Positions 1,262 to 63,323 of a DNA stretch of 64,000 bases are shown here, piece after piece. The notes below the pieces were generated by a model, which was not told where the DNA came from, ran no database searches, and was given only the letters and a program-made list of their open reading frames with translations. Source of the DNA: Eledone cirrhosa. Lineage: Eukaryota. Every line of letters starts with the position of its first letter. The stretch's first letter is position 1. Position numbers and translations under genes: made by a program. The DNA lies in NCBI GenBank assembly GCA_964016885.1, contig OZ024745.1, positions 50,778,001 through 50,842,000 on the forward strand, read 5' to 3'.

Positions 1262-1312
<51 letters not shown>

Positions 1313-1529
1313 AATATCTTTAAGTCGTTTGGAAGCCTCGACAATGCAAATGGGTAAATCTCCGGGTAACAAGATCCGGTGGTGGAGAGAGAGAGATGTA
1401 AGTGGGTGTACGTTGAGATGCGTGGTGTGTATAAGATGTGTAAATGTGTAGAAGAAAGAAGGGAAGAGTATAAAGGATAAAATAAAAATAACAACACAAG
1501 AGAGAGTTACCTTGGGAGAGATTTAATAG

Positions 1530-1566
1530 TCCCTATATATTTCGGATTCACATCCATCAACTGGGG
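1530..1566 (-). ncRNA. Decayed minimal hammerhead in the PLE 3' region
   Basis: ccc CAGTTGA t ggat gtga atcc GAAA tata TA ggg; CUGANGA box has two substitutions. Confidence 0.55.
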
Positions 1567-1965
1567 TTTTTTTCCGGGGTAAAGGTTGTCTGTCGGACAG
1601 GTGCGAAACGCGTCCTCCGCTGTTTGTTGTTTTGAAGATCTGAGGTATTCGGCAGAGCGCGCGTGCGCGTGAAATGGGAAATGGGTCGGTCGGGCAGAGG
1701 TCAGCGGCCAAATATTGGAGTGGGGTGGCGCTAGCTGTCAGTCCATTCTCTGCCTGTTTGTTAAATGTTTCTGTGTGTGTGTGTGCGTGTGTTGTTGTCT
1801 CGCTTGAGTGTGTGTGTGTGTGTGCGTGTGTTGTTGCCTTGTTTCTCTGTATTGGCAGTGTAGTATGTTCGTATGGTGGAATGCTACTGTGTGTGTGTGC
1901 GTGTGTGTGTGTAATTGTCTCGTTTGTGTGTGCGTGTGTTGTGTGTTGCTACATCGTTTGTTAAC

Positions 1966-3966
1966 TTAAACCAGCCATCTCATTTCGCTTCTCTCTAATC
2001 GGTTATTTATTTGCGGTTGCAGGCGTTTGATAAAAAGCGCTTCCTTGATACGTAACGTGCCGACGTTTCTTTCAGTTGCTAGAATTGTGACAATGGGCCT
2101 TCCGTCTTTGTTTCCGCATTTGTCTATGTGTTTCCGGAAAGACGAGGCCCTGGTTTTAGTGTGTTCCTTGATCCGGATGTGCAAAGGTCGGATTGTGCTA
2201 CCTATGTAGTATTGGTTGCACCTGTCACATTCTATCTTATACACGACGTATGTGCGTAGGCAACAGTTCGCATGGCGTATCGGGCAGTCTCTGAGGGAGC
2301 ATGCGTCAGTAGATTTCCCGGGTTTCTTGGAGAGGCATCTTCGCAGGGAGGGGCCCGAGTGGGCCAGGTGGATGTCGAGGCCCTCCCTCCGTATAGCTTT
2401 GCGGATAGCGTTGGTGGTATTCTCGCCCAGGTGTGGCATTTTAAGGAAGCACTTGCCTTGGGTGCCTCTCTGTCTCTTGTGTTTGGTGTCTCCTATTCTG
2501 TCTGTGATCGAGGTAGGGTACCCGTTCGTCTCCAGCACCTCGAGGAATCGCTTGGTATGAGTGACACCACTCGCGGGATCGCTGCATCTGTTTTTGATTC
2601 GCGCGATCTCGTTCGTGATGTATCCTCTTTTGGCACTGTTAGGGAGGGCGGACTTGTAGTGAACGAACAGGTCCCTGCAGGCTGCCTTTCGGTAGAAGTT
2701 GCACTGGATTCTTCCCTGTTCCGTGATGTTGATTCGGAAGTCGAGAAGGGCAAGTGACCCGTCTTCGTTGGGGTGTTCAACACTGAAGTCAATGTTCTAG
2801 TCCGTGTTGTTGAACGTCTCATAGATTCTGTTCGCCGTGTCTTGGGAAGATGTGAGGATGAGGATATCGTCCACGTACCTTGAGAAAAAGGCTACGGCGT
2901 TGGGGTGGCAGGCGTTGAGTGCCTTGCGTTCGAGGTTGTCCATGTAAGAGATCGCTAGCACACCTGATAGGCTTGATCCCATGGGCAATCCCGAGGTTTG
3001 TTGGTATGTTTAGTCAAGGAATCCGAAGTAGGTGTTGTCGACGACGATGGATAGGAGTTGGTGGATGTCAGTGGTGGTGAGCCCGAAGCAGTGTAGGTCG
3101 GTGGATTGGACGCGTCCCATTAGTATATTGACGGCCGGGAGTGCCGGGACCGAGGTGTAGAGAGCGACTACATCAAGGCTGAAGGCATATCTGTTATTCC
3201 TTCTGGTGTCGGAATCCATTTGATGCAGGCGCTTCAACACCTCCTCGGAGCTGATAACGTGTCCCGGCAAGGTGTCTAAGATGGGTTTGAGTATTCTGGC
3301 TAGGAGCCATGAAATTTTGTAGAGTGGTCCCTCCACGCTCGATACGATGGGCCTGATCTTCAGGTCGGGTCCCTGTTTGTGTGTTTTCACGAGGTGGTAG
3401 AAGGCGGGTAGTCTGCTGTTCCTCGTGAGGAGGTTGTATCTCAGCTTCTTCGGGAGCTTCCGCCGGTCGCACATGTTGGTCCAGGCGGCGTTGATGTGCT
3501 CTTCTATCTGCGCGGGAGTGATTCCCGTGACCTTGGAGTAGAGGTTGTCATCGTCAAGGTGTTGGAGGGCCAGGGTGTTGTAGGCCTCTCTGCTGATGAC
3601 GCAGAATTCTTTTCCCTTGTTGGAGGGGAGATAGATGAGGTTCTTCGATTTTAGGTTGGAGAGAGTGGTGAGTTGAGATTTGGTGAGGTTATGTGTTGTG
3701 TGTGTTTGTGAAGTATATCCGAGATGGAGTGTTTTAGCCTGATGAGTTTAGTGTCGAGTTCGTGGTTGGTGGGTGGGGGGTGGAGTGGGTTGTCGGGGTG
3801 GTAAGTGGGGAACTTGGGGTGGGTTGCGTGGACGCTGTTATTTTCTGTGGCGCTGTTGATGGCGGTCACCCATTTAAGTTGGTAAGCGGCTCGACAAAAG
3901 TTGGCCTCGATGTTGAGTTTGAGTCTGTCGTCGAGACGTTGTGAGACGATTAACTTGTGTCCGAGG
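1966..3966 (-). pseudogene. RT + GIY-YIG endonuclease ORF of the PLE, disrupted
   Basis: ORF pieces 3010..3474, 2797..2988 and 1966..2538 join in frame across a TAA (about 3010) and a TAG (about 2797); frameshift near 3660. Confidence 0.9.
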
Positions 3967-9064: not shown

Positions 9065-9118
<54 letters not shown>

Positions 9119-9310
9119 ACAGGGAGAAAAAGACGATTATTAGGAAGAAACATTTTTTTTTTTCCCTTTTTATTTTTTCTCTCTTTTTTTCTGAGTTAGA
9201 AAATGATTAAAACGAAATATTTTACTTTGTGTGAAGTGTTAAGGTATTAGTTAATTTATTTATTAATTAACAATAGCATTTATTTATTTATTTATATATT
9301 TAATAATTGT

Positions 9311-9349
9311 CTATTACCGGTTTCAGCATTTTTATGCATTATCAAATGA
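9311..9349 (-). ncRNA. Decayed minimal hammerhead in the PLE 3' UTR
   Basis: tcat TTGATAA t gcat aaaa atgc t GAAA ccgg TA atag. Confidence 0.55.
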
Positions 9350-9701
9350 TAATAATATGTATTGGTGTAGAATGGTGGTGTTGGACATGTTAAAGAAATG
9401 GTGCCGAAAGAATAATGTTATTTACAGGCATAGTTCTTGAAGATAAGCAGATCAAAATGTGTTAATATAGCAAGAGTTCTTAGTTGATCCATGATGGAGG
9501 CAAATGGTGGACTGGGGTTTGATATGATTTCCCTTTTTAGAGAGTTAATATGCAGGGGGAGGTAATTCAGGGTGGGGGGGGGGGGGAGAAATGCTGGATG
9601 ATATTTAATTTATTTAAGAAAAAGGATTAGGTAGGGTGTTAGGGAAGTAACTCATTAGAGAGACATGGGTATTTGTAAATGTTTCTTTGTTCGTTCCAGT
9701 T

Positions 9702-11965
9702 TTAGTTTAGTTCGAAGTTTAGTGCATTAAGTAGAGATTGGAATTTGTTAATGAAATACGTTTCCTTATTGGTACGATGGATGAAAGTAACGTTGTCTAT
9801 GAATTTGTAAATGGGGAAAATTTTAAAGTTTGGATGTTGGTTGGGTGCACAATTGGCGATATGTTCACTAAATCTTTCTGTATTCCTGTATTTTGATTTG
9901 TGATTTATGAACATTCATACGTTGTCGGAGGCTGTTTTTTGTCTGTCCTATGTAGTGCTCTTGACAACCTGAGCAGGTCAAAACATAGATTAGGTTTTCA
10001 GATGCACATGTAAAGGTGTGTTTAACTGTGAAATGTTGTCCTTGTTTAAAATGGAATGTTGAACCTTCTATTAGATTTATGCATATGCCACAGTTGGGCC
10101 TTCCGCATTTTGTTACTGTATGGTTCATTGTGAGGGTTTGCTGGATTTTGGCTTGTGTGAGGATGTTTTTTTATGGATTTAGGTTGTCTTTTGCTTTTAT
10201 GATGTTGTGTGTTTGGAGGATTTTGTTCATTCTTGGGTCTATTTTTAGTAAAGGAATATTCTGGAGGATGGTGTCGAATGTTGAGGGGGTTGTGTGTGGA
10301 GATGTATGGTAGAGTTTTCTGTTGCGGTTAATTCCTGGGTTTGGGGTGTCTGAGTTCCTGGATGTCGAGTTTTAGGGCACGTTGGAATCCATTGTTGATT
10401 AGGGATGGTGGGTAGTTTCTGCTGATAAGTGTGTTTTTTAATTCTTCTAGTCGTGTGTAGCATGTGTAGTTATCTGAAACTATTGTGCAGATCCTTCTGG
10501 CTAGGTTATAAGGAATTGCCATTTTGGTATGTCGAGGGTGGCACGAGTTGAATGGAAGGTATTGTTTGGAGTCTGTGGGTTTGTAGTATATGTCTGTTTC
10601 TATTTTGTTGTTTGTTTTCTTGATGAGGATGTCGAGGAAAGGGAGTTGTTCATGGCTGTAATCCATTGTGAATTGTAAGTTTGTGTTGAGTCCATTCAGA
10701 AGGGTTTTAAACTCAATCAGTCTATCTATACTTTCATGCCAGAAGATGAAGCAGTCGTCCAGATATCTCTTCCAGTTCTTTTCTATGGGTTGGTAGAAGT
10801 GGTTACCGTATTTGTCTAGAACTTTGCGGTAGAGAGTGGTTTCCAAATATCCCATGACAGGGTTGGCGTATGAGGGGGCTACTTTCGTGCCCATGGCAGT
10901 CCCAGATTTCTGTCTGTAGTATTTGGCATTGAATTCGAAGAAATTGTTTTCCAAGATGAATTTGAGTCCCTCCAAAACAAATACTTTAGGGATGCGCTGT
11001 CGGAGTTCACTAGGGAAATTTTCAAGCCAGAATTGTATTGCCTCTATACCTAGGTTGTGTGGGATATTGGAATATAAATTGATGACATCAAAGGTTACTA
11101 GTAGGGTATGTTCATTATTGAGTGTTGTTGGGAGGTGGTTGAGCATATCAAGGTCGTCCCTTATGAAGCTTTTTATGTGTTTTAGGAAAGGTTTAAGCAG
11201 AATATCTAGGAAGTTGTTTAGGCGGTGGGTTTCACATGTGGTGCCTGCTATTATGGGTCTTAATTTAAGGTCACCAGGAGGGGCTATATTGATGTAAATG
11301 TCTGTGGCTTGCTTGCAGGCCCTACCTATTACTTCGCTTTTGTGTGTCTTTGGGATACCGTAGAAGAGGCTGGTTCTGCTTTTGAAATTGGTGATGTAGT
11401 TGTATTCCTTGTCTGTAAGGCCTTCTTTGTAAAGGGTTGTTAGGGATTTTAGGTTTCTCATTATTTTCTGTTGTATGTAGTGTTGGGCCTTTTCATAAGA
11501 TGTTTGGTTTTCTAGAGTTGAGAGTACTAGAGTCGTGTAGTAATCTGTCCCCATAAGGACTACTGCACTCCCTTTATCTGCCTCTTTGATTGTTAGGATT
11601 TTGTCGTTTTTTAGACTGTTAAGACCATTCCATTCTTTTTTGCTCAGGTTTGGTTTTTGTTTGTGTCTGTGTAGGTGGTGGTATGGGTAATTAGTAATGT
11701 GTTCGCAGAATTCATCGAGAAATTTGTTCTTGCCTTTTGGTGGGGTGTAGTTGCTTCTATTTCTGGCTATTGAGTCATCCTCATTGTATTTGTCGTATAG
11801 TTGTTCGCTGAGTCTTAGTTTTCTACAGAATTCTGCAAAATCTTCCTTCATTTCGGGGTAGTTTGGTTGTTGGGGAGTTGGTGTAAATTTTAGACCTTTG
11901 GAGAGTATGTTGATTTGGTCTGTTGTTAATTCTTTAGAGGTTAAATTAACAATTTTTATTACATT
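9702..11965 (-). pseudogene. PLE RT + GIY-YIG ORF, frameshifted
   Basis: ORFs 10328..11851 (RT), 9868..10128 and 9702..9914 (endonuclease) need frameshifts near 10330 and 9875. Confidence 0.9.
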
Positions 11966-12758
11966 TTGTGTCTCCTGTGTGTTTTGTCTTATCTTGTTAT
12001 CCTGTGTTTGTGTGCTGTGTCTAAAAAATGATTACGGAAGTTGTGGTGGCTGCTGAAGTTTGGATGTCTCTTATGGTTGTGTTGGCCCCCGCTGTTGTTG
12101 TTAGATGGTGTGTAGCTGTGGTGGTTGTTGAAGTTAGGTTGTATCGTGTGGTTGTATTGAGCCCTGCTGATGTTGTTGTAGGGTGTGTAGATTTGATGGA
12201 CGTGGTTATAGGGTATGAAGTTGTGGTGGTTGTTGAAGTCGGGTTGTATCGTATGGTTGTGTTGAGCACTGCTGTTGTTGTAGGGTGTGTAGACTTGGTG
12301 GTAGTTGTAGTAGCGTTGTCTTGTGTGGTTATATTGAGTCCTGCTGTTGCTGTTATATGGTGTGTAGTTATGGTGGTTGTAGTGGTTAGGGTGTCTCGTG
12401 TGGTTGTATTGTCCCCTGCTGGTGTTGTTGTAGTAGGATGTGGTTAGTGGGGGAGGGTAGATTAAGGTTCCCTTATAGTTGGTGTGTGGTTGTGAGGTCC
12501 TATTTTGGGTTCTATGTTGGAAGTAATGATGGTTGTGGGTTTGTTGTGTGGGGATGTTAGGGGGGTTGTAAGTGTGTAGGATTCTATGGTTTCTCCTGGT
12601 GGCAGAGAAGTTGTAGTGTCTATCTTGTAGCTGATGTTTCTCTATTACTATATTTGTTGCTTGGGAATCCGTGTGGTAGTTATGTGGAGGGTGTAGGGGG
12701 TAGGGACGACATGATGCCTTCTTTTTTTGGTATGTGGGGAGGTATTGTTTTTTTGTTG

Positions 12759-13544
12759 TTGCCTATCTGCTGGGTCATTTCTATGTTTAGATATTATTCT
12801 AATTTCTATGTTGTCTATGTTACCGTCGTGTTGTTGTCTGGCATGTTCGTATATACGAACATGCCAGACAACGACACGACGGTAACATAGACAACATAGA
12901 AATTAGAATAATATCCAAACATATATATGACCCAGCAGAGAGGCAAATCAGAGAGGCCAGTGAAATAGAACTTAGAAGGCCAAGGCTAAACAGAAAAAAT
13001 GAATGGAATAACAACAACACCCAAACAAACAACACTGACCTAAGAGAAGTATAAATAAGTAAATAAATAGATAACTAAATAAATACATACACAAGCACAA
13101 TAACAACAAACACATATAAACACACACTAGTAAAGATAGAATACATTAACCAATACACATTCACCCAAACACGAACACACATCAAACAAAACACTATACA
13201 CACACGCAAACGCATGCGCAAAGAAGACAAAAAACAACAAATAAATAAATATATAAACAGACTAAATAAAGATGGCGTAGACATACAATGCAACGGGAGG
13301 AAACAATAGCACCACTGACGATGTTGCAGATGTGCAACGAAAGAACTTTGATAGACTATATATGTGTGTTTGTGTCTATATTGTATCTCTATTTTTGACC
13401 GTTGGTCAGTCAATGGCAACATTGAGGACCGAATAAATGAAATTAACCAATATAAAAGACACAGAAGCGAAAACCAACCAAACAGTGAGTGTGTTGTGTT
13501 ATAAATTCTGCCAATATTACACAAATATGACCCTCCCCAAGTAT

Positions 13545-23430: not shown

Positions 23431-24763
23431 TTTCTTTTATACCCACACAGGGCTCACATTAAGGTAACATTAAAGACGGTACAGGACGATACAGTGTTTT
23501 TTTTGTGTAAAATGAAATTTATAACAGAGACTAAGAAAAATAAATATTAAAAAAACAAACATAACCAATTCCCCAAAGGCGAAGAGACTCCAAGAGTTAC
23601 TCATCGAGAAATCCAACAAAAAGCCACGGTCACCCTGTCCACTAGGGAAAAGTGCTCTCTCCCAGTTGTTCTTCTCCAATCTACAGGCGTATGCTCAAGG
23701 CAGGCCCATTCACTCGGACCATACTCGCCACTCTCACCCACCTTTCAACAAACTGGTTGGAAGGCAGCACTTCCCTCTTTTGATTTTCCTCTTCAAGTGA
23801 AACCTGAACAAGTTGATCAGGACTTCACCACATGACCTTCTCCTCTAAAGGAAGACGGCGGGGGCAATCTTCACAATGGACTCAGTTGATAGTCGGATCT
23901 ATTTTACACGTGACTGTAGGTGTTCGACATAAACCTATAGGTCAGCAATACTTGGACACTCAATGAGTGCATGTAGGATGGTTTCGTCGCCATGTGCGCA
24001 CCTCGGACAGGCACGACTGAAGGCACTTCCATGCCTATAGAGTGTATCTCGAACTGGCAACGCTCAACGCTAGCACTCTCAGGCCAGGGATTTCTGAAAG
24101 TTGTCCATGGGCCCCGGACCGAAAGCTCTCTGGAAAATGGTGGCTAGTTGATTTTCATCAACACCAAGAGTATCCCCAAGAACATCGTCATTTTTTTTTG
24201 CCACTAACCCTCTATAGAACATTAAGATGGAGTTTCCACCGATCGTACTACCCGATTAGCTGAGGGCTGTCAGCGTTTGAAGACGTTCCAGCCTCCAAGC
24301 GCTCCCTCTCGGTCTTCGCTTGATCCAAGACTGCAGTTCCGTTAAGGAGAAGAGCTGAGGGAAAAACGTGTCTAACGAACAGCGACCACACCTGTTCACC
24401 CAGGAAAAGTTGGAGATATAGCCTCAGCGCATGTTTGCGCATCATCAACCACGGCATACCCAATTCTTCACGTAGCAGGTGTTGATAGCAGATGGACCGC
24501 CTGACTAATGGAACCTGACCCATCCACAAAAAGCGAAAGGCTAGACGTTCCAGTGCAGTCAGACGTGGGCTAGGACAATGCACGACAGCCAGGCGGTAGT
24601 AGATGATGGATGTCACCACCTCTGCCCGACCTTTCAAGGATAGCTTCCTCTTGGCCCATTCTTTGATGAGAGAGGCCACCTTGCACGTCACTTCGTCCCA
24701 GTTTGTGTCCATCTGGAGGTCTGGTTCAAACTAGACACCGAGTAATTTAACCGCTCCGTCCAG
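23431..24763 (-). mobile_element. L1/Tx1-type LINE, 3' fragment, decayed
   Basis: W..RKLSLKGRAEV, FLW.G..PLVRRSIC, CPRC; 3' end CCCTGTG..ATAAAAGAAA followed by (ATT)n. Confidence 0.85.
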
Positions 24764-27705: not shown

Positions 27706-27971
27706 CAAAGGGATATTTAATTTGTTGGTAATTCAACAAATATATATATTTATAACAGATTCGAAGCACTCGACAAGTTTTCTGGAGTACAATATCAATG
27801 ATATTAATAAATGGAAACTATATTTATAAAACCATATTTATTCTATTATATATATTTCAAGGGTACCAAAACTTTGGTACGCCCTCATCAGATAAAATGC
27901 AGAGCTTGTTTTATAAATATTGACATATCCAGGAATGAGACCTTAACGTTAACCATTAAGGTCTCATTCCT
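27703..27971 (-). mobile_element. Short HHR-bearing PLE-type element at (TA)n with 5' hairpin
   Basis: Homologous to 50261-50575; hairpin aggaatgagaccttaa-9nt-ttaaggtctcattcct at 27931-27971. Confidence 0.75.
27840..27898 (-). ncRNA. Minimal type I hammerhead ribozyme, intact core
   Basis: attttat CTGATGA gggc gtaccaaa gt tttggtac cctt GAAA tatata TA atagaat. Confidence 0.85.
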
Positions 27972-35391: not shown

Positions 35392-38003
35392 GACAGATGG
35401 TGGTACTCTCTCAAGAGGGCAGTTAGATTAGACTCGTTAGTTTTTAGTAAAGAATTAGCGTTAGATAGAAATAGAACCGAGAAAGAACTGGTAGATAAAG
35501 TAGAAGTGGCAACGTAGCCAGCGTGCTAGCAACGAGAACGGCCTTGGACCAGTTCTTCGACGCAAAGCATGAGGGTTGCGTTGTCAGAAGCAAAATACGT
35601 GCTCTGGGAAACGAGAGAGCCAAAGCTGTTAGCTGGGCCCGAGTGACGGAGGCAAAAAGTGGCAACAAGTCCACGATTCGGTCTTTGAAGGACCAAAACG
35701 GACGCGTGATACGTGAGCCGAAGCAGATGTGTGCGGCCTTTCAGCGGCACTTTGCTCAGCTGTTCGGACGTGGTGGCGCGCCGGGAAAGGTAAAGGATTT
35801 CGGTCCATACCTCGACAGCCTACCGCGTCTCTCGGACAGCGAGGCAAAGTTCTGCGAAAAGCCGATTTCATCCGCTGAGATAGGGGCCGCGTTGAGCCAC
35901 TGCGGCAAACGCAAATCTCCAGGTCTCGACGGTCTACCCTACGAATTTTACGTAGCAATGCCGGACTTATTCTCCGGTCTCCTGGAAGCAGTCTACTGCA
36001 ACTGGCAACAGAATGGGAGAATTCCCAGTTCTGTGACCGGGGGCGTTGTCACACTAGTCAGGAAGGACGAGAATAAAGGGGATGACATGGGCAACTTCCG
36101 GCCCATAACTCTGCTAAACATAGAGTTACAGATTTTGGCCAAGGTGTTGGCAAAGAGGCTGGCGCTTGTCGTCGAGAACCTGGTGGGAGAAGCGCAGACA
36201 TCTGCAATTCCGACCAGGTCCATACACGACAACCTCCACCTCATGCGATACATCATAGACAGGGTAGGGTGTAAATCCGGCTTCGGTGGGGCCCTGATCA
36301 ACTTGGATGAGTCTAAGACTTTCGATAGGGTTGACCATCGTTACCTGGATGCGGTGCTCGAGGCGGAAGGCTTCGGACCCGTGTTCAGGGGCTGGATTGC
36401 TGCAATGCATAACAGCAACATCTGCTCAAGGGTTAAGGTGAACGGCTACCTCTCGGAGCCGTTCCATATCACGCGATCCATTCGACAGGGATGCCCTCTC
36501 TCCTCCCTTCTGTACGTATTGACTCTCGGGCCACTACTGCGGAAGTTGGAGCTATTGCAGGGCATCCCTCTGGAACCGGGACTGCGGAAAGCGGCCTCGG
36601 CCTACGCCGACGACGTGACAGTAATGGTGTCAAGCGCCTCGCAAATCGAGGAAGTCGGCACCTTACTGAAGGAATACGAAAGGTTCACAGGAGCGAAGCT
36701 GAACCGGGAGAAGTCCATCGGTTTGCAACTCGGATCGTGGAGAGGCAAACCGATGCCTTCCGATGGCGTCGTCGGACGCTGGACGGAAGGACCAGTAAAG
36801 CTGCTCGGGGTCTGGTTTGGAAGAGGCGGGCTCCTTTGGTGAGAAGATCCATCTGCTGCCAACGCCCTTCCAACGGAGGGCTGGGGTTGTCGTGGCTGCC
36901 GATGAGCAAATACGCGCTCAAGCTGCGGCATCTCTACGTATTCCTCACCGGACAACCGGTGTGGGCCCCGTTCGTGAGGCGAGCCTTCCCACGACTCGTC
37001 TCGCTGACCGAGCTGCAGTCCTGGGTCAAGCAAAGACCGAGGAAAATGGGCGACTGGCACATCGAATGTGCTCAGGCGCTCACAGCCCTCTGGCAGGCGG
37101 ACCCGGCGATCAGTGTAGACTCCACTTCGTCATTCTATAGAGGGTTGATCCGCAGCAAGTGCGACGACGTGCTCGGTGAAACTCTGGGCGTAGAGGAAGA
37201 CGAACTGGCCAGTCTGTTCGGTAGGACCTTCCGCCTGGGACCGATGGACAACTTCCAAAAGTCCCTGGCCTGGCAGTGCTACCGAGGAGCTCTACCAGTT
37301 CGAGACAAGCTCTACAGACATGGGCGCCCGGGCAGGGACCTTGTAAAAAAGATTTGTCCGAGGTGCGTGCGAGACGAAGAAACCGTCGCGCACGCATTCA
37401 TACACTGCCCGGGCGTCACCGACCTGTGGGGCTATGTAGGTCTATTGTCGCGGGTGGGACCAATCCGGTTGACCACCGAGTCCATTGTCATGAAAAACCG
37501 CCACCTTCCTTCAAAAACGAAGGAGAGGCGGTTTTCCTTTGTGTGATAGCTATGGCGAAGAGGTTGTATGGTGGACAAGGTTGAAAGGGCTGAGGTCAGA
37601 CACCTTTCTCTCCGGCCAACAACTGATTCTTTTTTTCAAATACCACTTTGGAAGAAGAGTCAGGATGGAGAGAGAGGTGCTGTACCCCAGCAAGTTTTAT
37701 GAAAGGTGGGTGAAAGTGGCGAGAATGGCCCGAGTGAATGGGCCTTCTCTCTATAACAGCCTGTAGGCTGAGGAAAAAGAGGAGGAGAGGAAAGGGGTAC
37801 AAACTCTTCGTACTTATGGAGATGAGGGTTGCACATTTTTTTCGGGGGCATGTGTTACCCATATGAAATGTCTCCCCCTATTGGGGAAAATCGACTAATT
37901 TTTAAATTACATTTGTGATAATATTTTACACGTTTTTATTGTATGTAAACTTCCCCCTTTGTATTTGTCCCCTTCTTTTGTGCCCCTGTGGCTAATAAAG
38001 AAA
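35392..38003 (+). mobile_element. L1/Tx1-type LINE, 5'-truncated, inserted in (CTAT)n
   Basis: KSPGLDG, FRPITLLN, KTFDRV, RQGCPLS, YADD, CPRC..ETVAH..C; AATAAA at 3' end; (TATC)n on both flanks. Confidence 0.92.
35523..37766 (+). pseudogene. LINE ORF2 (RT and C-terminal zinc knuckle), disrupted
   Basis: ORFs 35523..36842, 36491..37546, 37276..37584 and 37539..37766 joined by frameshifts and an internal deletion near 36820. Confidence 0.9.
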
Positions 38004-40300
38004 CATATCTATCTATCTATCTATATTTAACTGCCAGTCTGTTTGTCTGCCAGCATGCCTGTCTATCTCTCTATCACTCTTTTTGCCTATCTGTATCTCT
38101 TTCAGTTTATTTATCTCTAGATGTATTTATTTATCTATCTACTCGCCAAGATATATGACTGAGTACCTCTCTGATTGTTTGTCTGTATAAACTATTCATT
38201 CAAGATTTTCTTCCTTTCTCTTCACTAAGATATACGATCCTTGAACTGGGACAATCGGAATTTGGTTAAGACAAATTGTCGATTTTATCCGCTGATCAGG
38301 TCAAAGGGTCACACAACACACACGCAAGCATAAAATCACTCTGTGCAACTACTTAGAATTCCGCATACTACAAACGGAGCAACATATAAACCGATTCATT
38401 CAAACCTCACATTCGTTAACACCGGTTGAAACCAGACACTTATTTGTCTGTCTCACCCAATCTTATTTACTGCCTCTATCTCACTCAAATACGTACAAAC
38501 ACACACCCTCTCTCTTTCTCTCTCCCCTCTCTCTTTGTTAATCTGTGCACCCATATACATTTACAAATAAATGTCCGTATATGAGTGTAAATGTATACTC
38601 TTTTACTCTTTTACCTGTTCCAGCCATCCGGCTGAGGTCATGTATATGTGTGTATGAGAGTGTGTGTGTGTGAGTGGTTCAGTTACGCCCACGTTAAACT
38701 AACAATGGCACGACATAAGAATGAAGCTTCATGCGAGATATTTTCACGTTTGAGAAGAAATTAATTCGATAACTACTTCCTGGGCCTGTCACACAATAGA
38801 AATCTCCATCTCTCGTAGTCTCTTATGACTGAAATATTTTCCAAGTACATTTTTACAAGAAATCCACATATCCATACATGCGCCCATCCACTTATACACA
38901 TGCACCCACCCACATACGCACACGCAAACACACAGCATTTGCATTAACAATTTGCCTTCTTTATGCATTACCAGTAGTTTCGTACTCGTCTACTGCCTTC
39001 AGATACACTTAACTGAGTGAAGAACAATATGGAGAATACCATTCAGGGGGATGTTTTTCAACGTTTCCAGATCACGTGATGATGTTGGTTAGTCATCGAT
39101 ACCAATTCAATAGACACGTGGTGACAAATGGATGACGAGCAACTTAACGACATTATAGTTGACGTTATGTCTGGCAGGTGTCACTGCACGAGCTAATGTT
39201 CATTTAGTTTATATGATGTTGGTACCGGTGTCCTTTTGGTAAGTCTGAAGTTATACAAGGCAAACATGACCATGCGTGTGAATAGGAGGATTGTGATGAC
39301 CAAGTAGAAAGAGAGGCGAGTAAGAATAAACGTGGCAGGATAAACAGTGATAGGTGGTTGGTAGGATGTTAAAGAGATAACAGTATGAGCAGAGTGAAGA
39401 GATAGCAATAAAAATCAGTTATGGTAAAGGAAAGCAATGGAGAGGAGTGATGGTGAAAGTGTTAGGTATCAATAAAGAGTCTTGCGGATGAGGGAATATG
39501 ATGGTCAGCGTCAGAAGGTGAGGAAGAGAAGATCACTGCTTAAATATGCACCTCGATCGTTTCAATCGTTCCTCTTTCGAAGCGAAATTCGTGCTGAAAA
39601 AATGCTCTAGACCAGACTAATTTTTTCGACCTTTCAAATTAACCTGTTTCTTCATCTAACTTTTTTCTAACCTTTTTCTTCTTAGAGTTAGCTCCCTTTA
39701 TATTTATAAAATTTAAATTATTTATCTAATTATAGTGTAGTTTCAGGATCACCTTCCCTTAGAACTCTCCTACTCTATCAGAACCTCACCGGAAGTACTC
39801 CATCACAATATGGCAGGATGAATGTGTTGGGGTAGAAACCCAACGAAACTTATATGTCACTGTTGAATCTGATTATAAATAATTCGTGTTACTGATTGAG
39901 TGTTCATAACCCACGGATATTATACCAAGTTTGTGTATGAATGCATGTGTATGCCATGGCGGACTGGCCAGGTTGCCAGGTTGGCCAATGGCAAGTGGGC
40001 CCCATGGGGTCCACGGTGGCATTGCAAGAGCCCACAGTAGTATTGCAGGGCCCACTGTAATATTTTAGGGGCTAATGTTTTGCTTTAAAAAAACACCTGA
40101 AATCTAAGAGAAAGAATAAATAAATAAATAAATAAAACAATTAAGCAAAGCATTTGGTCAAACAATTCCCCATGGAATTATTAGAAACCAAAATATAGTG
40201 CAAATAGCTGCAATCAGTGGTTATACATTCTACTAAATCTAAAGCTTACTTTATATATATATATATGAAAACATATATATATACACACACACACACACAC

Positions 40301-40375
<75 letters not shown>

Positions 40376-40379
<4 letters not shown>

Positions 40380-40985
40380 CCAATGAAGGCTGGAAGATCA
40401 CTGATGAGGGACTAATTTTATTCATATGTAACCCATTTGCAACCACGCAGCACGCCATTTTTTCATATATTTATATATTTTCCTCCGCTGTGACCCGTCT
40501 GTTTCTTTCTTACTGCTTCCCCTTTCTCTGTATCTCTAACTTTCTTTTTACCCCCTCTGCCAGTCAGTCTCTCAGTTAGCCTCTTCCTCACACTTTCACT
40601 CACTCACTCTCTGCTACTCCCTCTCCATTAATTCCTCCCGTTTGACCTGTGCGAAATCCTTTCCTCACTCACATTTCAACCAGGTTGGATGGTCTTTTTT
40701 TCTCTCGTTTACGATTTCACAGAACTTATGTTCATCGATTTCAGGGACTTGACTCCTACTTCCTCACTTTTCATTGCATTACCATCTTTGTTTGTTTGTT
40801 TACTGTCTCGCTCGTTCCCCCTATTTACGTGTCCCAACGACTTTCTTTAGCCGTTGATCAAACCAACCAGAGGTATATGATCTTTAAAGCAATCAAATAC
40901 TAATGAAGGCTGGAAGATCACTGATGAAGGACTAATTTTATTCATATGTAACCCATTTGCAACCACGCAGCACGCCATTTTTTCA
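40376..40985 (+). mobile_element. Retrozyme-like element: 520-nt unit with about 90-nt terminal direct repeat, in (TA)n, with rearranged hammerhead (GAAA box decayed)
   Basis: 40376-40465 repeats at 40896-40985; non-coding; homologous to 56058-56638; ggta TA tgatctt..atc AAA tac..aagatca CTGATGA. Confidence 0.75.
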
Positions 40986-41067
40986 CACATATATATATAT
41001 ATATGTCTCAAGGCTCTGATACCATCAACACTATACACGCAGAGCTGGCATATATAAGAACTGACTA

Positions 41068-41123
41068 ACTGCCTGATGAGGTCATAGCCATTCAATGGCT
41101 ATCATCGAAATATATATAGCAGT
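41068..41123 (+). ncRNA. Minimal type I hammerhead ribozyme, intact core
   Basis: actgc CTGATGA ggtc atagccat tca atggctat catc GAAA tatata TA gcagt, in a 165-bp segment between (TA)n tracts. Confidence 0.88.
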
Positions 41124-41164
41124 AAATAAAGGATTATGAGTTCATGCAATTGACTTATGTTTCG

Positions 41165-41203
<39 letters not shown>

Positions 41204-50789: not shown

Positions 50790-51520
50790 GTGTAAAAAAG
50801 GTTATAACAAGATAGAAATATAAAAAAAAAAAAAAAATTCCGCCATAGGCATAGGGAAGAAACTTCCGAGGGTCACTCGTGGCGAAAACCACACAAAAGA
50901 CCCGGCCACCTTGACCACCAGAGCAAGCGCCCTCTCTGTTTTCCACTCCCCAGTCTACAGGCACATAATCAGAGCGGGCCCGGTCAAGCGCCGGAAATGT
51001 CCAGATGCTCGGCACCGCTCTCAAGAAATATGAAGCAGTGACAGGAGCAAAGTTAAACCAGGAAAAGTCGGTGGGCTTGCAGCTCGGCACCCGGAGAGGC
51101 AAGTCCATGCCGCCCGACAGCGTCGTGGGGCGCTGGACGGAAGGACCGGTTAAATTGCTCGGGGTCTGGTTCGGTCAGTACCTCCAGATGGAGAAAAACT
51201 GGAGCGAGGTGACGAATAGGGTGGCCTCTCTCACCCAGAAATGGGCCGAGAGAAAACTATCCCTGAAAGGTCGGGCAGAGGTGGCGAATGCGTTCATCGC
51301 ATCCGCCATCTGCTACCGCCTAACCCTTGTGCCTTGCCCCGGCCCAACTTTGACAAAAATGGAGCGCCTCCTTTTCCGCTTTTTATGGAAGGGACGTGCT
51401 CCCATGGTCAGACGCTCCATCTGCTGTCAATACCCGTTGCGTGGAGGGCTGGGCATGCCGTGGCTGATGATGCGCAAACACGCGCTTTGGCTGCGACATC
51501 TCTGGTGCTTCCTTGACGGT
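50790..51520. mobile_element. L1/Tx1 fragment with inversion: 3' UTR on - (50790-50982), RT fragment on + (50983-51520)
   Basis: ORF 51005.. matches ORF2 at 35523; the left part matches 23505-23710. Confidence 0.8.
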
Positions 51521-56057: not shown

Positions 56058-56638
56058 AAGACTACTGAAGAGGACATTTTAACCCTTGTCTATTTTTATT
56101 CATATATTCATGTTCGCAACAACGTAGCACGCAATTTTTCATTCACATAATTTTTCCCTTCGCTGTGGTTCGTATATTTCCTGTTACCTTATTGCTATCA
56201 TCCCTTCTCTCTCCTTCACCTCTTGCCTTCCTCAACTCCTGCTGCTGGTCACTCACTCTCGGCTGGTCCTTCCTCCCACTTTCACTCACTCATTCTCTGC
56301 TTCTCCCCACTCTCACTTCCTCCCGTCTGACCTGCTTGAATTTCTTTCCTCTCTCAATCTTCTCGCAGCTCGGACGTGTCTATTTTTTCTCGTCAATTTG
56401 ATATGTCGGGCTTATGCCCACGTGATTCATTGACTTGTCTCTATTTTTCCTCTCTTTTCGTTGCATACCACCATGTGTTTGTTTTCTTCCCTCCGTTTTC
56501 CCACTGTCCCGATAACTTAATTGAGTTATTGCTCGCACTGATTTTAGGTATATAGTCTTTAATGCGTCGAAATACCAACGATAAATTAGAAGACTACTGA
56601 AGAGGACATTTTAACTCTTGTCTATTTTTATTCATATA
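56058..56638 (+). mobile_element. Retrozyme-like element: 532-nt unit with 49-nt terminal direct repeat, in (TA)n
   Basis: 56058-56106 repeats at 56590-56638; homologous to 40376-40985. Confidence 0.78.
56547..56607 (+). ncRNA. Candidate non-circularly permuted hammerhead ribozyme
   Basis: ggta TA tagtctt (56547-59), gtc GAAA tacc (56566-76), aagacta CTGAAGA ggac (56590-607); stems I and III pair perfectly. Confidence 0.7.
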
Positions 56639-60441: not shown

Positions 60442-61017
60442 ACTATGGCATTCAGTACATCACACTTTAACCTAATTATTCAAATTCATACTACTGGCCC
60501 GCTTGAGCAATTTCTTTTATCTTTTTCTCTCTCTCACCCCCACCCCCCACACACACTCACACTCACTCAGTCACTCACTCTCACACACCAACACACTCTG
60601 TATATACATACATATAATTATTTTCCCGAATACATTAAGGAACATTCTTTCAACTCAATAAAAAGCAGCTTAATTATGTTGAAAATCAAATATCAACATA
60701 CTTTGAAATCTTTAAATTAAAACGAAATTAATTAGATTATTTCCAGAGTAAAACATGGAATTTAATGATACACTCTGTTGAATAGCAGTGCCCCGATTTA
60801 TAACGGATGTAATGGTATATTTGCTCTAAAGTACTATTTATGACCTCTGATACTTAGTATACGGGTCCCATGTACGATGTATTTGGGGTTACATAAGTAC
60901 CATCTACACAAGAAAGGAAAATACCTCATTATTTGTAAAATTATACCCCCTACTGCTATATTGGTTTAATTGACCGATGCACCAATGCTAGAAATCAACA
61001 TTACATTTCTGCTAACA

Positions 61018-63323
61018 GATGCTAACGTCTGATAAGATGCTAACGTCTAATAAGATGCTAACATCTAATAAGATGCTAACGTCTAATAAGATGCTAACGT
61101 CTAATAAGATGCTAACATCTAATAAGATGCTAACGTCTAATAAGATGCTAACGTCTAATAAGATGCTAACGTCTAATAAGATGCTAACGTCTGATAAGAT
61201 GCTAACGTCTAATAAGATGCTAACGTCTAATAAGATGCTAACATCTAATAAGATGCTAACGTCTAATAAGATGCTAACGTCTAATAAGATGCTAACGTCT
61301 AATAAGATGCTAACGTCTAATACGATGCTAACATCTAATAAGATGCTAACGTCTAATAAGATGCTAACGTCTAATAAGATGCTAACATCTAATAAGATGC
61401 TAACGTCTAATAAGATGCTAGCGTCTAATAAGATGCTAACGTCTAATAAGATGCTAACGTCTAATAAGATGCTAACGTCTAATAAGATGCTAACACCTAA
61501 TAAGATGCTAACGTCTAATAAGATGCTAACACCTAATAAGATGCTAACGTCTAATAAGATGCTAACGTCTAATAAGATGCTAACGTCTAATAAGATGCTA
61601 ACGTCTAATAAGATGCTAACACCTAATAAGATGCTAACGTCTAATAAGATGCTAACGTCTAATAAGATGCTAACATCTAATAAGATGCTAACGTCTAATA
61701 AGATGCTAACGTCTAATAAGATGCTAACGTCTAATAAGATGCTAACGTCTAATAAGATGTTAACGTCTAATAAGATGCTAACGTCTAATAAGATGCTAAC
61801 ACCTAATAAGATGCTAACGTCTAATAAGATGCTAACGTCTAATAAGATGCTAACGTCTAATAAGATGCTAACGTCTAATAAGATGCTAACGTCTAATAAG
61901 ATGCTAACGTCTAATAAGATGCTAACATCTAATAAGATGCTAACGTCTAATAAGATGCTAACGTCTAATAAAATGCTAACATCTAATAAGATGCTAACGT
62001 CTAATAAGATGCTAACGTCTAATAAGATGCTAACATCTAATAAGATGCTAACGTCTAATAAGATGCTAACGTCTAATAAGATGCTAGCGTCTAATAAGAT
62101 GCTAACATCTAATAAGATGCTAACGTCTAATAAGATGCTAACGTCTAATAAGATGCTAACGTCTAATAAGATGCTAACGTCTAATAAGATGCTAACGTCT
62201 AATAAGTTGCTAACATCTAATAAGATGCTAACGTCTAATAAGATGCTAACATCTAATAAGATGCTAACGTCTAATAAGATGCTAACGTCTAATAAGATGC
62301 TAACGTCTAATAAGATGCTAACGTCTAATAAGATGCTAACGTCTAATAAGATGCTAATTTCTAATAAGATGCTAACGTCTAATAAGATGCTAACATCTAA
62401 TAAGATGCTAACATCTAATAAGATGCTAACGTCTAATAAGATGCTAACATCTAAGATGCTAACGTCTAATAAGATGCTAACGTCTAATAAGATGCTAACG
62501 TCTAATAAGATGCTAACATCTAATAAGATGCTAACGTCTAATAAGATGCTAACGTCTAATAAGATGCTAACGTCTAATAAGATGCTAACATCTAATAAGA
62601 TGCTAACGTCTAATAAGATGCTAACGTCTAATAAGATGCTAACGTCTAATAAGATGCTAACATCTAATAAGATGCTAACGTCTAATAAGATGCTAACGTC
62701 TAATAAGATGCTAACATCTAATAAGATGCTAACGTCTAATAAGATGCTAACATCTAATAAGATGCAAACATCTAATAAGATGCTAGCATCTAATAAGATG
62801 CTAACATCTAATAAGATGCTAACGTCTAATAAGATCCTAACATCTAATAAGATGCTAACATCTAATAAGATGCTAACATCTAATAAGATGCTAACGTCTA
62901 ATAAGATGCTAACATCTAATAAGATGCTAACATCTAATAAGATGCTAACGTCTAATAAGATGCTAACGTCTAATAAGATGCTAACGTCTAATAAGATGCT
63001 AACGTCTAATAAGATGCTAACGTCTAATAAGATGCTAACGTCTAATAAGATGCTAACATCTAATAAGATGCTAACGTCTAATAAGATGCTAACGTCTAAT
63101 AAGATGCTAACATCTAATAAGATGCTAACGTCTAATAAGATGCTAACGTCTAATAAGATGCTAACATCTAATAAGATGCTAACGTCTAATAAGATGCTAA
63201 CATCTAATAAGATGCTAACATCTAATAAGATGCTAACGTCTAATAAGATGCTAACATCTAATAAGATGCTAACATCTAATAAGATGCTAACGTCTAATAA
63301 GATGCTAACATCTAATAAGATGC
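61018..63323. repeat. 18-bp tandem satellite GATGCTAAC(G/A)TCTAATAA, about 128 units
   Basis: Direct reading; gives the MLTSNK repeat ORF 61019..63331. Confidence 0.98.

Follow-up and report, generated by a model that had tools for sequence, protein, structure and literature searches.

We have characterised a high-copy, non-coding and terminally redundant family of repeats that carries a hammerhead core in S-G-C order, which is not a circular permutation. Two of its members, E1 and E2, lie in the window, that is, the whole stretch of 64,000 nt analysed here. Judging from the genomic copies, we consider that the family is likely a non-autonomous retrozyme that is copied in trans by the RT/endonuclease of a Penelope-like element (PLE). 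A more far-reaching reading is that more than 10,000 retrozymes are based on an active S-G-C hammerhead with a splinted junction in place of stem II, follow a circular RNA cycle and are copied by PLEs, and that the rolling of monomers also makes the pLTRs of autonomous PLEs. The last point, if true, would provide a general answer to the origin of the partial tandems of PLEs, and we put this reading forward as a tentative and somewhat doubtful one.

The two elements and the tract adjoining E1 are as follows.

40252..40376, strand not assigned: (TA)n target tract 5' of E1
40376..40985, + strand: element E1, a 520-nt unit with a terminal repeat of about 90 nt, a member of subfamily F1 whose 3' end is the distal tail site
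40933..40985, + strand: tail of E1, AC-rich with TA-like ends, lying between the two sites at which 3' ends of the family fall (about 40947 and about 40985)
56058..56638, + strand: element E2, a 532-nt unit with a terminal repeat of 49-50 nt, a member of subfamily F2 whose 3' end is the proximal site

An earlier note on this DNA had described E1 and E2 as diverged homologs, each of one unit plus a partial repeat, which are pyrimidine-rich, sit in (TA)n and lack a meaningful ORF, and all of these points were borne out. The units, with periods of 520 and 532 nt, are identical at 363 of 497 aligned positions (73%), and their alignment score is 371 against 47.6 +/- 14.4 for shuffles. The direct repeat of E1 contains 2 substitutions in 90 nt (95% in a local alignment of 103 nt that includes the TA-like flank), and that of E2 is 98% identical over 50 nt. 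Pyrimidines account for 67-69% of both units, the longest ATG ORF of the units rolled as circles is 50-53 aa, and shorter TA runs lie 3' of E1 and on both sides of E2. An Rfam scan of the 64-kb window returned no ribozyme family match, only TA-repeat miRNA noise. When folded as circles, the units are not highly self-paired (MFE -74 and -80 kcal/mol; z -0.39 and -2.85; about 40% paired).

Copies of the unit are dispersed and high in number, and are arranged head-to-tail from monomer to multimer. The motif stem III - 16 nt - GAAA - stem III gave 10,247 genome matches against 29 for the reversed control, and a first look at the 3.0-Gb genome of the window yielded 4,448 candidates with E1 as the query and 2,348 with E2. 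Units of the superfamily are about 520-790 nt long; the subfamilies in the sampled loci have units of 520, 531-533 and 630-637 nt, with 62-90% identity between subfamilies, and families further removed, with units of about 760-790 nt and, by the period of one locus, about 500 nt, have equal topology. Ranking loci by similarity favours long copies, so those used for the length statistics were drawn by exact motifs and comprise the first 100 of the 227 F1 matches, minus the tandem array described below, and all 73 F2 matches. The sample comprises 140 arms (72 F1 and 68 F2), the two arms of a twin being counted separately. The 140 arms and the motif sites agree with the description of a retrozyme-like non-coding family, in which terminal redundancy and multimers are family features. 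Two distant S-G-C families (L378-L417), one with the unit of about 760-790 nt and an older one with a single 501-nt period, also lie in (TA)n, are redundant and have inverted arms. The tail motif AACCAC.CAGC of the 770-nt family can pair with a downstream GCTGTG.

In 23 representatives, the hammerhead core is conserved and has the order cleavage site, GAAA, CUGANGA. The predicted elements in the window are listed below.

40831..40932, + strand: S-G-C hammerhead of E1, with a candidate splint strand from 40831
40872-40876/40897-40901, + strand: stem III of E1, predicted cut after 40877
40878-40885/40913-40920, + strand: stem I of E1, with CUGAUGA at 40921-40927
56505..56608, + strand: S-G-C hammerhead of E2, core intact, with GAAA at 56569-56572 and CUGAAGA at 56597-56603
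56547-56551/56572-56576, + strand: stem III of E2, predicted cut after 56552
56553-56560/56589-56596, + strand: stem I of E2
56505-56509 with 56604-56608, + strand: candidate helix UGUCC/GGACA of E2

The ribozyme of E1 is probably inactive because C replaces G at the G12 position of its core (CAAA, 40894-40897), a position that is mostly G in the contigs of three public runs (one sample). Covariation was assessed in the representatives, which were hand-picked from 38 clusters. For both stems I and III, the cognate strands pair better than swapped strands (0 of 5000 permutations each). A 30-pair structure, which was read from the tested sequences themselves and in which three distant rows are partly misaligned, has 86% of its cells paired and 18 of its 30 pairs changed on both sides, above all slid controls. 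Direct pairing of stem II covers only 1-4 bp and gives no normal helix; the only pair of note, 10.1-11.1, is formed in 16 of the 23 representatives by four pair types. Both strands of stem II could be splinted by an upstream strand through GUCC/GGAC and UCGC/GCGA, with a covarying hairpin between them. In the swap tests, splint helix a scored 11.96 for cognate and 11.94 for non-cognate strands, and splint helix b was reached in 269 of 5000 permutations, so that the first helix gains no support from swapping and the second gains weak support. The atypical stem II and these helices count against catalysis; we consider it quite probable that the ribozyme of the family is active.

In scans of metagenome and viral sequences, none of the 103 stretches with the S-G-C pattern (98 from metagenomes and 5 viral) has at least 4 bp of stem I, and we therefore regard these matches as chance. 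Regex matches to the same order behind the PLE ORFs at L099, L118 and L266 proved on inspection to be type I hammerheads. A minimal type I hammerhead (CUGAUGA ... GAAA UAUAUA) is also present at 41043-41170 (+) of the window, in another very high-copy repeat just behind E1, which has the highest summed depth in the public-run contigs; motifs resembling it occur at 27891 (-) and 50363 (-).

The 3' ends of 69 of 72 F1 arms and 67 of 68 F2 arms (136 of 140) fall at one of two registers, which are about 42-48 nt apart and immediately 3' of the ribozyme. Strict (TA)4 follows directly in 44 of the 72 and 48 of the 68 arms, and loose contig ends are seen at 40947 in the public-run contigs (one sample). 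The register mapping that the earlier note had called for thus qualifies its remark that E1 and E2 use different registers: they do differ, one ending at the distal and the other at the proximal site, but the registers are not free, as both sites are fixed in the family. An inverted partner arm, joined 5' to 5', is found for 17 of 72 F1 and 20 of 68 F2 arms, and the arms of twins have far more variants in common than expected (41 of 92 against 9.7, and 34 of 76 against 9.2). The hallmarks described for PLEs include an optional tail of about 40 nt and inverted and partial-tandem structures (PMC8557442), and a PLE enzyme is described to use, in vitro, two adjacent internal start sites 3' of its own hammerhead and to extend both strands (PMC11167929). 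We interpret the two 3' ends, which run mostly into (TA)n, as the PLE tail signature.

The window itself holds a copy of a possible partner.

1310..3966, - strand: 5'-truncated, stop-interrupted copy of a young, high-copy PLE with RT followed by GIY-YIG, inserted in (TA)n; its family is a candidate partner acting in trans

A GIY-YIG match was found in this copy, and its family has 25,167 genome candidates. In the 110 of 140 listed loci that were sampled, copies of this PLE likewise end at two 3' positions, separated by about 43 nt (58 short, 49 long, 3 other), and 16 of 35 long copies use their own UTR as pLTR. At 30 of the 110 loci this PLE forms twins with itself, and at two (L219 and L244) it stands head-to-head with a unit copy, with no TA between. 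The partner is a 1.2-unit F3 copy in L244 and a piece of the 630-type unit with an internal deletion in L219, and the fusions lie at almost equal PLE positions (701 and 708). Among 73 unit 5' flanks, one (L099) is a direct-orientation fusion between an F1 arm and the UTR of a second PLE family, with a 5-nt microhomology, ACCCG, at the join, and one (L135) stands head-to-head with a third PLE family across 9 nt of TA. Fusions between PLE and unit total three loci, and the two that involve the window PLE concern subfamilies other than those of E1 and E2. The proposal that a (TA)n-targeting PLE such as that at 1310-3966 mobilises the unit is supported, and this family is found fused to unit copies in single insertions (L219 and L244). 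It is not the only PLE family joined to the unit, as L099 involves another. On the evidence of the ends and joins, the unit is very probably a PLE-mobilised non-autonomous element. PLE copies at L219, L222, L243 and L244 are 5'-truncated at 701-708 of the window copy, which could be a truncation hot spot.

The earlier note had named as the contrary case that the unit is the pLTR or 3' UTR of an autonomous PLE, which would then be an unseen one, or that its repeats are local duplications. The end signatures of the unit are indeed equal to those of PLEs, vertebrate retrozymes are described as related to pLTRs (bioRxiv 10.64898/2026.07.22.740005), and a rare or very distant parent could have escaped our probes, which were three window PLE peptides and three further pieces. 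However, no RT/GIY-YIG ORF adjoins the unit as its 3' repeat in the loci sampled (90 with about 4 kb on each side, the rest with 1.5 kb), and no upstream body is common to the 73 non-inverted 5' flanks. The window PLE has its own UTR as pLTR, and the unit shows no homology to it (best match an 11-mer, E 0.59; other PLE families were partly sampled); the 11-mer, common to the PLE UTR and the F1 tail, was rejected as non-significant and is absent from F2. Local duplication is opposed by the recurrence of terminal redundancy at thousands of unlinked loci. We consider this reading largely refuted and its truth very improbable. Given the PLE fusions and the lack of a unit as the 3' repeat of an ORF in these loci, we conclude that the unit depends for its movement on the enzymes of one or perhaps several PLEs and does not represent the pLTR of these elements.

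The laps within single insertions bear on how the redundancy is formed. Non-majority bases are common to the laps of one insertion in 72 of 209 cases in F1 (14.7 expected) and 71 of 175 in F2 (21.3 expected), and where a subfamily-diagnostic variant is present, both laps carry it in 64 of 82 and 54 of 71 instances, respectively. Diagnostic variants in one lap have no consistent polarity between the 5' and 3' laps (10 versus 8 in F1, 13 versus 4 in F2), and a polarised difference at unit position 323 was discarded as a gap-placement artefact. Rare variants occur in both laps 19 times in F1 against 1.5 expected and 10 times in F2 against 1.4, although 11 of the 19 in F1 sit in two multimers (L141 and L142). 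Divergence is lower within than between insertions (4.4% versus 5.7% in F1; 5.4% versus 7.1% in F2). Since adjacent laps have rare variants in common, the variants point to a monomer-to-multimer step. A one-lap variant that is found in both laps implies a one-unit bottleneck, by a circle or an end-to-end jump, or else DNA conversion, and nothing else, and we believe that a circle or an end-bridged monomer probably takes part somewhere in the cycle. The window PLE family shows a similar behaviour: its pLTR/UTR pairs have 45 of 79 variants in common (9.0 expected), 10 of them rare, and 8 of 16 pLTR starts lie 3' of the predicted cut of the PLE (2437), the nearest at 2441 and 2446.

The 5' ends were analysed in 134 arms, after dropping four without a tail-site end, one below 78% identity and one chimeric. 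When weighted, about 72% of arms are shorter than one unit, 24% measure 1.0-1.3 units and 3% are longer. Within the first unit the stop hazard per 100 nt is 0.2-0.3, and it reaches 1.76 over the 70 nt that surround the second ribozyme; weighted for double sampling, it is 2.0 there versus 0.27-0.46 earlier. The first cut-site junction is crossed almost freely. Relative to the second cut site, the interval from -61 to +4 contains 32 stops and that from +5 to +57 contains none, and the hazard drops past this site. The starts of E1 and E2 lie 19 and 37 nt downstream of the cut-site position projected one unit earlier. Arms primed at the distal site seldom stop on reaching their own primer (2 of 17 and 1 of 6) and halt further on, in the same zone as the others. 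Accordingly, collision with the own primer is not supported as the cause of the stop zone, which follows the register and not the primer position, and neither is RNA:DNA hybrid stability, which has no peak there in F2. Most simply, cleavage at the second cut site would have set the 5' end of many of the templates, and a smaller number of templates would be longer or circular. Because the cut site itself is TA-like, microhomology might also contribute to the edge.

These data modify what had been proposed for the template. Of the copying of a circularised monomer, the monomer-to-multimer step stands through the variants common to laps. Copying slightly more than once round as the usual event is not supported: most arms fall short of one unit, the 3' ends are fixed at two sites, and register determines where the ends of longer arms accumulate, in the 60 nt before the second cut site. 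Nor can E1 and E2 themselves release a monomer by self-cleavage, because each contains only one complete ribozyme. If nearly all copies came from a covalent monomer circle, slightly over once round with a stop on meeting the primer, the arms of 1.0-1.3 units and longer and the almost free crossing of the first junction would be accommodated, and circles have been demonstrated for other animal retrozymes (PMC7229834). This strict form is improbable in our view, as the stop zone tracks register instead of primer position, hybrid stability does not peak in it in F2 and the hazard declines after the second cut site. More generally, a covalently closed circle as template is hard to reconcile with the sharp 5'-end edge at the second cut site, and that such a circle is the direct template of most copies seems rather unlikely.

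On the other hand, PLEs might copy linear, partly self-cleaved transcripts of tandem loci, from cut site to tail with one internal ribozyme uncut, while unequal crossing-over or gene conversion keeps the laps alike and neither circle nor jump occurs. This would fit the sharp edge and the raised hazard at the second cut site, and uncut RNA is described as the main substrate of PAc PLE (PMC11167929). An array of 14 kb with 17 intact cores does exist, and the multimers L141 and L142, with their 11 of 19 rare F1 variants, could arise by DNA duplication or gene conversion. Yet rare variants in both laps are also found in arms below two units (L128, L079, L149, L110, L026, L104 and L002), and each subfamily, at 62-90% identity to the others, has its own matched laps. 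Recurrent polarised lap differences are absent once the alignment artefact is removed, the u277-u384 deletion junction of the array is in no dispersed arm examined, and the lap divergence of F1 (4.1%) is about that of twin arms (3.9%). We therefore judge the linear template as the sole source to be unlikely, and slightly more so than the strict circle.

We prefer a cycle that combines cut linear templates with a monomer step. The PLE enzyme would nick (TA)n on one or both strands, and reverse transcription would begin at either AUAU-like tail site, immediately 3' of the ribozyme. Synthesis would pass the first cut-site junction almost freely and end mostly no more than about 60 nt from the second, where self-cleavage would have produced the 5' end of the RNA; such stops would give copies of 1.1-1.25 units, for example E1 and E2. 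Transcripts of arms with two whole ribozymes, of which there are 12 among the 134, would release a cut-to-cut monomer. Once this monomer had been closed to a circle by ligation, or while the enzyme bridged its two ends, it would be copied more than once round. Its rolling would restore the redundancy starting from one unit and prevent shrinkage of the family.

Metazoan non-LTR retrozymes are described as non-coding elements with a type I hammerhead and highly self-paired units (PMC7229834; PMC7761336; bioRxiv 10.64898/2026.07.22.740005). As in the accounts by Cervera & de la Pena 2020 (PMC7229834) and Li, Clavereau & Pollet 2026 (bioRxiv 10.64898/2026.07.22.740005), the present family is non-coding, with GC below 50%, head-to-tail copies from monomer to multimer, a hammerhead per unit and thousands of copies; PLEs are present in the same genome, and a PLE is proposed as the partner. 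In contrast to the elements in these accounts, the ribozyme has S-G-C order and not type I, the units of about 520-790 nt are 67-71% pyrimidine and not highly self-paired (z -0.4 and -2.9), and the unit has no homology to the pLTR of the window PLE. Circles are demonstrated there and are putative here; the link to PLEs comes here from fused insertions and tail ends, and there from co-occurrence and phylogeny. We suggest that the family works like animal non-LTR retrozymes, departing from them in two features, the type I ribozyme and the highly self-paired unit.

Compared with the type-SGC hammerheads of Eckert et al. 2023 (PMC10085705), the block order of cleavage site, GAAA and CUGANGA and all core nucleotides are alike, and stem I continues via a short linker into the strand before GAAA. 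That account describes the type from metatranscriptomes and, one GCS candidate aside, from no genome of a known organism. The present family differs in having more than 10,000 sites in an animal genome, inside a retroelement, and in a stem II reduced to about one pair, both strands of which are possibly splinted by an upstream strand. Searches of main texts in the open-access literature turned up no account that places an S-G-C hammerhead in the genome of an animal or in a retroelement. With PLEs that have a pLTR and tail, and with their non-autonomous derivatives such as MRC1 (PMC8557442, PMC11167929), the family has in common the unit plus partial tandem, head-to-head arms, the optional tail of about 40 nt, microsatellite targets and 5' truncation. 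Unlike those elements as described, the unit has no ORF and another ribozyme topology, and unlike the non-autonomous Chlamys elements, it has no similarity to the 3' end of the fused PLE.

In the sources cited above, the partnership of retrozymes with PLEs is derived from co-occurrence and pLTR phylogeny, and the step from circle to DNA is a model. The present family adds evidence at the level of insertions, namely tail ends, twin arms and PLE-retrozyme fusions, and with thousands of copies the question of the template, circle or cut linear RNA, can be tested by counting. The lap and end tests also apply to the formation of PLE pseudo-LTRs. If the ribozyme cleaves, a hammerhead permutation known from metatranscriptomes would gain a very high-copy occurrence in the genome of an animal, where at least five subfamilies supply natural variants of it. 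Retrozyme searches based on type I would miss an S-G-C family.

Several further features were observed. The tandem array of the F1 unit spans about 14 kb (G000:C1:285545966-285559812; L092-L094); it contains the 17 intact cores, its units diverge from one another by 9% on average, and an internal deletion (unit 277 to 384) recurs within it. It is a satellite-like DNA-level expansion of the element; as a master source it was rejected, its deletion junction being missing from the dispersed arms examined. Three independent insertions (L110, L115 and L129) have a common junction that leads from the predicted cut site directly to unit position of about 184, which suggests a propagated variant template of about 839 nt. 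Like the edge of 5' ends at that site, this junction bears indirectly on self-cleavage.

The 3' UTR of the window PLE contains a hammerhead-like motif at about 1527-1565 (-), with an atypical type-I-like core (UUGAUGG ... GAAA UAUAUA) found in 28 of 30 copies examined. Near-perfect palindromes of 120 nt (12793-12912) and 72 nt (1191-1262) adjoin PLE copies, and the sequence of the latter also flanks unit copies L010 and L192. A second, decayed PLE family lies at about 9115-12762 (-), with a 567-aa RT frame, a Cys-rich linker and upstream repeats rich in His/Asn/Thr; it ends in TTTTCATATA and (TA)n, and its last 20 nt resemble the distal end of F3. Fragments of non-LTR retrotransposon RT, which we take to be L1/Tx1-like, lie at 35499-37546, 24248-24730 and 50969-51500, and an 18-bp tandem array of 128 copies with 95% matches occupies 61017-63323.
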